From an uncultured delta proteobacterium (GTDB lineage: Bacteria; Desulfobacterota; Binatia; UBA9968), in contig CAWJZV010000011.1 in assembly GCA_963847445.1 (NCBI GenBank), positions 1 to 64,000 on the forward strand: 64,000 bases of DNA, read 5' to 3'. Position numbers and translations under genes: made by a program. The notes under the pieces are model-generated. The model did not search any database and had not been told where the DNA came from. It saw only the letters and a program-made list of their open reading frames with translations. Below, piece by piece: positions 1 to 47,527 of this stretch (its first letter is position 1; the number at the start of each line of letters is the position of its first letter).

Positions 1-82
1 ACCACGAAGTGCTTCATAGCTTGCGCTCGCCTACATAAAATGAAAATGGATGGGATTCCCTCCATAGGCGGTCTGCTTGACG

Positions 83-107
83 CGTCATTCCCGCGCACGC
101 GGGAATC
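83..107. repeat. CGTCATTCCCGC-GCGGGAATC hairpin repeat (intron target, 5' exon part)
   Basis: Stem ATTCCCGC/GCGGGAAT at 87-106; continues as CAGG after the intron at 849. Confidence 0.85.
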
Positions 108-848
108 GTGCGCCCGTGAGGGCGCCACATCAGCACGGTGAAAGTCCGTGTCGGAGTATGCCACAAACTCCGAAGTCGAAGGTAACTGCGTCGCTGTGAA
201 GCGAGGTGGAGAGCAACCGGAGGCGAAAAGTCGGTCCGTAGTAAAGCGAACTCGATTCGGCGGAGGAGCTGCGACGAGCCTGCGATTCCAGGGCGAAGTC
301 CGAAAACCGCTGGACACGCTGGCGTGGTGGTAAGCGATGTTCAGGCAGCCCACGTGGTTGGAGACGGAACGACAAGAAGGTGTGGCGAGGTAAGCGGGGA
401 GACCTGCATGGTAGGTGAGCTGTGCAGGAGTCAGAGCCTTCATGGTAGCGCAGCGGCCAAAAGCCGCGAAAAGCGCTGGAAGCAAAACGGCGCCGAGGGA
501 CGGGAGGCAGGAAGGTGGATACGTGAATTCCACACAGAGGTAGAGCGAAAGCAAAGCGTTGCCAGTGTCTGAAAGGACTACGCAAAGCGCAGAGACGCGC
601 GGCCGCGATTGGTCGTGGGTGGAAGCCTCGAAGTGGAGCGAACGCATGTTGGCGGCGCTGGTTAACGGCGTCATAAGAGGCAAGTAGCTAATGCTTTTTC
701 GCGCACAAGGGTTGTTCACCATTATTGCGATCCCTGTGTTAGCGAGCCAATCCCGATGAGGAAACCACCGACTGGAGAGCCGTGTGCGGGAGAACCGCAC
801 GCACGGTTCGGAGGGCGGGGACGGCGAAAGCCGTTCCCCGACCCCTAT
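108..848 (+). mobile_element. Group II intron, ORF-less (IEP internally deleted), AGC-triad domain V
   Basis: 5' end GTGCG at 108. Domain V GAGCCGTGTGCGGGAGAACCGCACGCACGGTTC at ~777-809, then the domain VI hairpin and a terminal CCTAT ending at 848. IEP remnants: N-terminal (WSWVEASKWSERMLAALVNGVIRGK*, 565-687) and C-terminal (AQGLFT..ASQSR*, ~690-759). Splicing the intron out restores the repeat GGGAATC^CAGG. Confidence 0.9.
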
Positions 849-866
849 CAGGTGACGGACAGTGTC

Positions 867-936
867 CGTCATACCGTTGAAAAACGGTATCCAGGTGGAT
901 GATGGGCCTGGATACCCGCTTTCGCGGGTATGACGG
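867..936. repeat. Two inverted copies of the CGTCAT..ATCCAGG hairpin family
   Basis: cgtcataccgttgaaaaacggtatccagg (867-895) and cctggatacccgctttcgcgggtatgacgg (907-936). Confidence 0.8.
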
Positions 937-1156
937 AACCCCGGAGGCTCTTCGATTGTGCAGATCATCCCCTTACAGGTATCTTCGGAAGGACATGGCG
1001 ACACGTCATCACAGGCACGAGCACGGAGTTCGGAGTGTCAATTATCCGGAACCTTCGTGTCCTTCGTATTGCTATCCAAAAACTAACACCAACATGTTTG
1101 TCATAGCGTACGGCTTTAATATTCCGGGAGTCGAACATTCTCGGATTCGGAAATTC

Positions 1157-9917: not shown

Positions 9918-9990
<73 letters not shown>

Positions 9991-47377: not shown

Positions 47378-47527
47378 CCGTCATTCCCGCGAAAGCGGGA
47401 AGCCAGGATTATCGTCACCCCGGTGAAACCGGGTCCATCCCCATCGACGTAACTCAGGACACCGTTCTTCAACGGTCCGACCGACAGCAATCCGTAACCT
47501 GGATGCCCGCGTCCGCGCGCATGACGG
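47378..47527. repeat. Intron-free copies of the CGTCATTCCCGC hairpin family
   Basis: cgtcattcccgcgaaagcgggaagccagg (47379-47407); cctggatgcccgcgtccgcgcgcatgacgg (47498-47527). Confidence 0.8.

Follow-up and report, generated by a model that had tools for sequence, protein, structure and literature searches.

The target specificities of bacterial group II introns have been given as three only, namely homing sites, terminators and attC sites (PMC4424553). Insertion after a stem-loop has so far been described mainly for class IIC introns such as B.h.I1, which follow terminators, other stem-loops or attC sites. The class is recognised by a CGC triad, a distal domain V stem shorter by 2 bp, an exon-binding site 1 (EBS1) of 3–4 bp and a small size, and its stem-loop has been proposed to substitute for the pairing of intron-binding site 2 (IBS2) with EBS2 (PMC1702495). 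The hallmarks of the IIB-like classes E and F are a 5-nt domain V loop and an alpha-prime sequence at the tip of the Id3 stem-loop, and in vitro the splicing of Cl.be.I2, Pe.th.I2 and Ge.ur.I1 depends only on EBS1 (PMC3753933). In halophiles, introns that are likewise non-IIC (IIB, with CL1 and class E proteins) lie after hairpin-forming, attC-like sites; these are few, mostly truncated and at integron sites, and the accessible text shows neither a family-wide rule nor EBS1 co-variation (Sonbol and Siam 2021; PMC7923331). Repetitive extragenic palindromes (REPs) of the CGTC-tagged class, which includes dRS3 of Neisseria, have a CGTC tag, a stem of 8–9 bp starting with AT, a short loop, a CCA tail and many copies; in the accessible part of their description no dedicated transposase is reported and introns are not mentioned (Di Nocera et al. 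2013; PMC3733652). For REP targeting by introns, our literature search returned only a table entry, in which two of the nine group II intron copies of Pseudomonas putida KT2440 are REP-associated (PMC1525189); the accessible text of Toro 2013 contains no hairpin or target terms, and its figures and supplements may bear on class and target sites. Here we describe a group II intron without an open reading frame (ORF) that interrupts a CGTC-type REP. It lies in the window analysed here, the first 64,000 nt of contig CAWJZV010000011.1 from an uncultured delta proteobacterium of the Binatia (GCA_963847445.1).

We consider it likely, at roughly 75%, that the window holds an intact ORF-less, IIB-like member of an intron family specialised for insertion 3′ of CGTC-type REP hairpins, using EBS1 and IBS3 pairing and no EBS2, with recognition of the hairpin and mobilisation in trans as its inferred parts. 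The protein gene would have been deleted from this intron and the RNA structure kept. The target would be read through a 6-bp EBS1–IBS1 pairing extending into the hairpin's 3′ arm, plus a single EBS3–IBS3 pair at the C in position +1. The hairpin itself would supply the missing specificity, as in class IIC, and would be recognised by the ribonucleoprotein on transiently single-stranded DNA, and two EBS1 specificity types would address the two strands of the repeat. After its origin by deletion, the ORF-less form may have reached new sites with a sibling protein acting in trans; in the present genome it would survive as a single orphan copy.

An ORF-less group II intron inside a CGTC-type REP

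The host genome (G000) is a 7.19-Mb draft in 48 contigs, 91.8% complete with 6.9% contamination, and the window starts at base 1 of its contig C11. The intron (copy L001) occupies 108–848 (741 nt), with GTGCG at its start and CCTAT at its end, and shows the group II hallmarks of a GUGYG-type 5′ end, an AY 3′ end and a bulged A in domain VI. The first-pass annotation, made from the letters alone, had proposed an ORF-less group II intron with these ends, and the Rfam models and the fold agree with it. RF00029 (domains V/VI) matched 775–848 at 55.6 bits (gathering score 40), and RF02001 (group-II-D1D4-3) matched 190–388 at 31.9 bits, slightly below its gathering score of 32. The consensus fold of the window copy and six relatives contains 137 pairs; in 21 of them both partners have changed in a compensatory way. 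The window copy retains all but three (134), compared to 133, 134 and 135 in three ORF-bearing siblings of the same alignment, and L016, whose protein gene is disrupted, keeps all 137. Given the Rfam match, the kept consensus pairs and a protein gene reduced to its two ends, this is a real ORF-less group II intron with a structurally intact RNA. The features of the locus are the following.

83..107, + strand: 5′ part of the CGTC-type REP and end of the 5′ exon (tag CGTC 83–86, arm 87–95, loop 96–97, arm 98–106, C107); sequence, with the 9-bp stem found by script
102..107, + strand: IBS1 GGAATC, with all but one of its six bases inside the 3′ hairpin arm; 6/6 complementary to EBS1, co-variation in relatives
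108..848, + strand: ORF-less group II intron; Rfam, consensus fold, sequence
113..398, 399..432 and 436..508, + strand: intron domains I, II and III, approximate; consensus fold
~515..770, 777..809 and ~812..846, + strand: intron domains IV, V and VI, approximate; consensus fold
284..289, + strand: EBS1 GATTCC, located in the loop that caps the domain Id hairpin 278–294; folds, complementarity, co-variation
631..687, + strand: N-terminal remnant of the intron-encoded protein, KWSERMLAALVNGVIRGK followed by a stop; translation, alignment with the full-length L013 and L015 proteins
685..695, + strand: ORF-deletion junction with the short filler TAGCTAATGC, ~1.1 kb of coding sequence missing relative to the siblings; sibling comparison
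697..759, + strand: C-terminal remnant of the intron-encoded protein, FRAQGLFTIIAIPVLASQSR followed by a stop; translation, sibling comparison
777..809, + strand: domain V, 33 nt, with AGC triad, 2-nt bulge, 4-bp distal stem and 5-nt loop GAGAA; Rfam alignment, sequence
812..848, + strand: domain VI with bulged A841 (eighth base from the 3′ end, the last base being 1) and 3′ end CCTAT; Rfam, sequence
849..852, + strand: start of the 3′ exon, C849 (IBS3) and the remaining REP tail (CAGG); C at +1 of the 3′ junctions
855..936, both orientations: neighbouring REP hairpins of the same cluster, all empty, with a forward copy at 868–891 and a reverse copy at 911–934; sequence

Removal of 108–848 rejoins CGTCATTCCCGCGCACGCGGGAATC/CAGG (the slash marks the junction), and the site without the intron reads CGTC-ATTCCCGCG-CA-CGCGGGAAT-CCAGG. 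Compared with the published definition, positions 83–110 of the intron-free form have every element of a CGTC-tagged REP, CGTC-ATTCCCGC(G)-loop-(C)GCGGGAAT-CCA. The insertion point lies between the first and second C of the REP tail. Thus, the interrupted repeat is a CGTC-type REP, split exactly between hairpin and tail.

Such repeats are abundant in the host genome. A strict pattern finds 266 REP copies and a looser script ~400 perfect GTCA-hairpins; the ligated 28-nt exon form occurs 33 times elsewhere, always empty, and one empty site is identical to the ligated exons over 44 nt. Hairpin sites that end in GGAATC followed by C, and are empty, number 97, out of 938 GGAATCC heptamers in the genome; GTGYG follows only one repeat. 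The other repeats of the window were found where the first-pass annotation had placed them (GGTATC at 868–891, the reverse copy at 911–934, GGAAGC at 47380–47403 and a GGCATC-type reverse copy near 47498–47527). Its observation that only the perfect-match copy is occupied is correct inside the window but uninformative, because the 97 perfect sites stand empty genome-wide, so that the occupancy of the only perfect window copy carries no weight. The argument for selective occupancy is further contradicted by relatives at mismatched sites (6 of 20 with one mismatch, 1 of 20 with three).

The intron-bearing REP is itself part of a larger composite dispersed repeat (window 1–985 without 108–848). 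Positions 1–83 are 100% identical to C5:63–145 of the host genome and 85–94% identical to at least ten other places, and the ligated form is 92.6% identical over 254 nt to the paralogue at C5:63–318. At the orthologous locus of two other genomes, G003 and G014, the whole REP block (window ~10–985) is absent, and ...CACCACGAAG is directly followed by GACATGG; as the whole block is missing, these loci are uninformative on the gain of the intron. A dispersed repeat of ~470 nt with many copies in G000 and the genus (window ~1067–1535) is also inserted relative to G003 and G014.

The insertion site and its pairing with EBS1 across the family

Relatives were sought in 61 genomes of the order, 25 of which gave matches. 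Together with six further public records, these genomes provided 37 distinct readable 5′ junctions. Three loci were left out, namely L052 (a 69% fragment with an unrecognisable 5′ end), L053 (an internal piece) and L062 (its contig begins 3 nt before the intron), and four loci with intron flanks that repeat already-counted junctions were counted once. All 37 junctions lie 1–2 nt past a REP-like inverted repeat. The dispersed hairpin repeat that the first-pass annotation named as the target is therefore borne out, now for the whole family, and none of the readable junctions was at an unrelated site. In a strict test (perfect stem of at least 7 bp, loop of 2–10 nt, ending 0–2 nt before the junction), 26 of the 37 junctions had a hairpin, compared to 144 of 5000 random positions of the host genome. 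This test replaced a first one, which had allowed loops of up to 30 nt and was passed by too many random positions (804 of 3000).

The repeat is used in both orientations, which had been overlooked. Ten junctions are of the forward kind (GTCAT...GGNATC/C), 23 of the reverse kind (GGAT...GGNATGA/C), and four are atypical: one is palindromic throughout, one has altered ends, one contains a nested hairpin, and the last is the decayed fragment of the host genome. Correspondingly, EBS1 occurs in two types, GATNCC with GGNATC/C on one repeat strand and TCATNC with GGNATGA/C on the other, and their registers differ by one base. Since both orientations are used, each REP offers two sites, one per strand, each 3′ of the hairpin as read there.

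EBS1 of the window intron is GATTCC at 284–289, as had been proposed; the range 279–292 given with it is that of the surrounding stem-loop. The hexamer lies in a hairpin loop both in the minimum-free-energy fold of the single sequence and in the seven-sequence consensus fold, although in the latter the final C forms part of the closing pair, and it is fully complementary to exon positions 102–107. Among the relatives, six EBS1 variants were found (GATTCC, GATGCC, GATACC, TCATAC, TCATTC and TCACTG or TCACTC), each with a matching exon, and the pairing co-varies at position –4 in the forward type and –5 in the reverse type. When G–U pairs are allowed, 13 of 20 distinct copies pair at all six positions, six have one mismatch and one has three. 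At least 13 full pairings were obtained in 0 of 10,000 shuffles, and in 4 of 10,000 when shuffling was confined to one orientation, a test that overstates independence since the copies are kin.

The base at +1 was C at every 3′ junction read (10/10, 7/7 and 10/10 in three partly overlapping sets; two cut points in the first set of ten were moved by 1–3 nt). EBS1 and this C together provide seven bases of specificity, which alone would not yield the observed sites, because only 97 of the 938 GGAATCC heptamers lie within REP hairpins. In a search for EBS2, no 5-nt window of domain I showed complementarity to the exon between –6 and –20 in six or more copies out of at least eight. The hairpin stems vary in sequence between sites, and no co-varying intron segment was detected. 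Given that no EBS2 was found while the stems differ between sites, recognition of the hairpin appears to be the simplest reading.

The nearest cultured relatives are on plasmids of Cupriavidus and Paraburkholderia (Burkholderiales), with 64% protein identity, and all other plasmid hits were at 42% or less. They also sit behind a small hairpin and have a perfect 6-bp EBS1 pairing, ACTAAA with TTTAGT. Two of them, L071 and L072 (plasmids of Cupriavidus taiwanensis and Paraburkholderia aromaticivorans), have a 23-nt 5′ exon in common, made up of the small hairpin and TTTAGT, and ACAA after the intron. Their surroundings otherwise differ, one being between integrase genes, and the shared flanks look like a conserved homing site.

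Family members with 72–81% protein identity and the same REP type (L061, L062, L065, L066 and L067) were also present in metagenome-assembled genomes titled Acidobacteriota, Nitrospira and Gammaproteobacteria. Most of them are on short contigs, and they could reflect horizontal spread or mis-binning. Genome G027 contains two miniature derivatives that consist of intron ends only, L050 (C32:85943–86074, ~63 + 91 nt) and L017 (C33:5734–6179, 313 + 137 nt); both remain at REP sites, with CC.. or CAGG past the 3′ end. In the same genome, L036 (C52:23297–27079) carries an insert of ~1.9 kb between positions 339 and 342 of the intron, with a second, broken reverse transcriptase-like frame (36% identity, three stops), and may be a nested intron (twintron).

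Loss of the protein gene and the copy in its host genome

Domain IV of the window intron retains only the two ends of a protein gene. The ORF-bearing siblings in related genomes measure 1845–1854 nt and encode a protein of ~447 residues (483 from an upstream GTG in L013), which matches TIGR04416 (group II reverse transcriptase/maturase) at 383–393 bits over residues 67–407 and leaves no room for an endonuclease domain. The protein-encoding sibling for which the first-pass annotation had suggested looking is thus found in related genomes (the L013 and L015 type), but not in the host genome itself.

The deletion is shared. The window copy and L011 (G001) have the same junction, including an identical 10-nt filler, and the breakpoints of L012 (G021) and of a decayed fragment in the host genome (C46:377676–377971) lie within 6 nt of it. 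L070 has a separate deletion, which implies two or more losses of the ORF, and the ORF-less copies are found in at least four genomes. Copies with the common junction occupy different sites, and their EBS1 sequences also differ, in each case matching the site of the copy; in G021, four or more 5′ ends of the L012 subtype lie at different sites. The proposal of mobilisation in trans can therefore be kept for the past, since near-identical deletion junctions occur at different sites in three genomes, which suggests that the ORF-less form was once mobilised by a sibling protein; for present-day mobility the assembly provides no cognate reverse transcriptase. A similar history is known from the ORF-less TeI3 introns of Thermosynechococcus elongatus, which likewise have a common ORF deletion with N- and C-terminal remnants, different sites, good EBS/IBS matches and diverged EBS sequences. 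In contrast to the window lineage, the drivers of TeI3 are in the same genome and its mobility has been demonstrated experimentally (PMC2882425).

A genome-wide listing of copies, also suggested by the first-pass annotation, returned one full intron and the decayed C46 fragment. The only reverse transcriptase of the assembly is frameshifted, belongs to another intron and shows 33–45% identity. The other group II introns or remnants of the host genome (C45 ~340–2077, C6:94912–94986 and C11:94193–94268, all outside the window) are not of the REP-targeting family. The frameshifted gene lies in one of them and gives the sole RVT_1 match of the assembly; in two, domains V/VI (43 bits) are almost the same in sequence, and one, at 37.4 bits, is under the cut-off. 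A crude test for a REP signature before the candidate 5′ ends at C6:94912, C45:2003 and C11:94193 found none.

Contigs from three metatranscriptome runs match intron positions 137–373 and 428–764, the latter across the deletion junction, with 0–1 differences, and fit transcription of the window intron. They bridge neither splice site by 31 nt, and the uncovered parts represent no finding. The joined form 107>849 occurs in four contigs of a DNA run, which is explained by the commonness of empty repeats. A sole contig of an RNA run (X16) joins 107 to 849; given its flanks, which are 7–11% diverged, and the empty paralogues of these flanks in the host genome at 85–100% identity, it allows no conclusion on splicing. 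For the same reason, reverse transcription PCR across GGAATC-CAGG, the assay earlier suggested, would be confounded by empty paralogous repeats that carry the same junction. The window copy is an intact orphan, probably transcribed but not spreading, and probably idle.

Intron class and competing explanations

An ordinary class IIC intron, of the class known to insert after stem-loops, is the most obvious comparison. Like class IIC, the family has a stem-loop in place of IBS2 (at 37/37 junctions), no EBS2, pairing through EBS1 and EBS3, endonuclease-free proteins and intergenic sites. The best solved relatives of the sibling protein are IIC reverse transcriptases (240.6 and 225 bits, vs 169.6 and 152.5 for IIB and IIA examples), but this search cannot discriminate the class because its matches included no structure of class D, E or F. 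The RNA differs from class IIC in several features. The triad is AGC rather than CGC, as the first-pass annotation had stressed in setting the class aside; domain V is 33 nt long, with one Rfam consensus position missing rather than a distal stem shortened by 2 bp, and has a 4-bp distal stem and a 5-nt loop; and EBS1 is of 6 bp, co-varies at –4/–5 and overlaps the stem (PMC1702495). The junction follows the stem by 1–2 nt instead of 3–11 nt, the ribozyme measures ~590 nt compared to 412 nt for a IIC example (PMC1702495, PMC3753933), and the REP target has no T-run. The presumed counterpart of the 11-nt epsilon-prime bulge of class IIC (conserved AGGAA) has the sequence GAAGGUAAC and does not form an 11-nt bulge in the consensus fold. 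By the published criteria, as applied to its sequence, the window intron is not class IIC, and the reading of the family as an ordinary IIC lineage is very improbable. On its RNA features and the endonuclease-free sibling protein, the intron looks IIB-like and E/F-like. The 5-nt domain V loop is GAGAA in the window intron and GAAAA in the Burkholderiales relatives; the loop GUGGU of hairpin 310–344, an Id3-type stem-loop and candidate for alpha-prime, could pair with GCCAC, which lies in the loop of hairpin 152–172, with a one-sided U/C change as the only support; and the small IIB-like size agrees with Cl.be.I2, Pe.th.I2 and Ge.ur.I1. Unlike this family, those introns have a co-varying EBS2–IBS2 pairing and ordinary homing sites (PMC3753933), and on this evidence the family is placed no further than IIB-like and E/F-like.

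A different account of the sites would have the ribonucleoprotein read only the seven bases of EBS1 and EBS3, perhaps with a few protein contacts, and blind to hairpin structure; REPs, abundant and neutral, would retain the insertions that are purged elsewhere. We regard this as unlikely, though worth serious attention. IBS1 lies mostly inside the stem, which speaks against a folded target, the REPs are numerous (266 strict-pattern copies), most other heptamer sites are presumably in genes, and bacterial introns generally reside in intergenic or mobile DNA (PMC12584367). Such survivorship does not account for 37 of 37 junctions at hairpins and none at other intergenic sites, for stems that vary in sequence with no co-varying intron segment, for the same geometry of 1–2 nt past the stem on both strands, or for the distant Burkholderiales relatives that follow a different small hairpin. 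Less probable again is an immobile fossil, an ORF-less form that was never mobilised, its deletion spread by recombination, gene conversion or vertical descent, and the window copy decaying. The one full copy beside 97 empty perfect sites, the lack of a cognate protein in the assembly, the decayed C46 fragment and a ribozyme tree that does not resolve the ORF-less copies would fit it; against it stand a fold as intact as in the ORF-bearing siblings, ORF-less copies with the same junction at different sites and each with a matching EBS1, the four or more L012-subtype 5′ ends in G021, and near-identical sequence in RNA libraries. As for the converse order of events, in which REPs insert next to introns, REP clusters are indeed variable, as the block absent from G003 and G014 illustrates, but a complete REP is split here exactly between hairpin and tail, and EBS1 matches and co-varies with REP bases, which makes this order scarcely credible.

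Insertion by hairpin-guided targeting remains the preferred reading, and several points weigh against it. Splicing and mobility are predictions from sequence, and the class of the protein is provisional. IBS1 overlaps the stem by 4–5 bases, so that a formed hairpin would hide most of it, which fits poorly with simple hairpin recognition. The host genome has a single full copy and 97 empty perfect hairpin sites, and no cognate reverse transcriptase or protein-coding relative was found in the three hosts of ORF-less copies of the window lineage, G000 (91.8% complete), G001 (65%) and G021 (95%), drafts that may miss repeats. The independent deletion in L070 and a tree of ribozyme sequences (11 rows, without contig-end fragments, G005 and G035) in which a single clade of ORF-less copies is not resolved complicate the history. 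The RNA-library contigs may hold DNA, and strand, ends and splicing cannot be read from them. Finally, the copies are related and some sites are possibly orthologous, so the counts overstate independence; the unpublished genomes G005 and G035 contribute five junctions to the 37 and four EBS1 pairs to the 20.

Introns that target stem-loops, and ORF-less introns that are non-autonomous, are already known, and the present one, a variant of both, does not fit class IIC by its published criteria. We suggest, tentatively and with more doubt than conviction, that a second lineage, independent of IIC and IIB-like in its RNA, replaced EBS2 by DNA-hairpin recognition and became a CGTC-REP specialist that can be retargeted to either strand by a one-base shift of EBS1, its ORF-less derivatives being non-autonomous retroelements. 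If so, stem-loop targeting evolved more than once, and the family, with a full 6-bp EBS1, no EBS2 and the use of both palindrome strands, would offer a compact system for how an intron ribonucleoprotein reads DNA structure. The family also links two kinds of selfish DNA, with REPs as safe landing pads for retroelements, and its ORF-less copies provide a further example, rare in bacteria, of non-autonomous group II introns. That such ribonucleoproteins help to turn over or spread CGTC REPs, for which no transposase is known, seems most improbable. The window itself carries a modest message, one intact, orphan and apparently idle copy.

Among the remaining Rfam matches in the window, those to rsmX, sR34 and U4 at 847–1143 were far under their thresholds and located on REP hairpins, and were rejected. 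The sole other match above threshold is a tRNA gene at 9918–9990 (72.7 bits).

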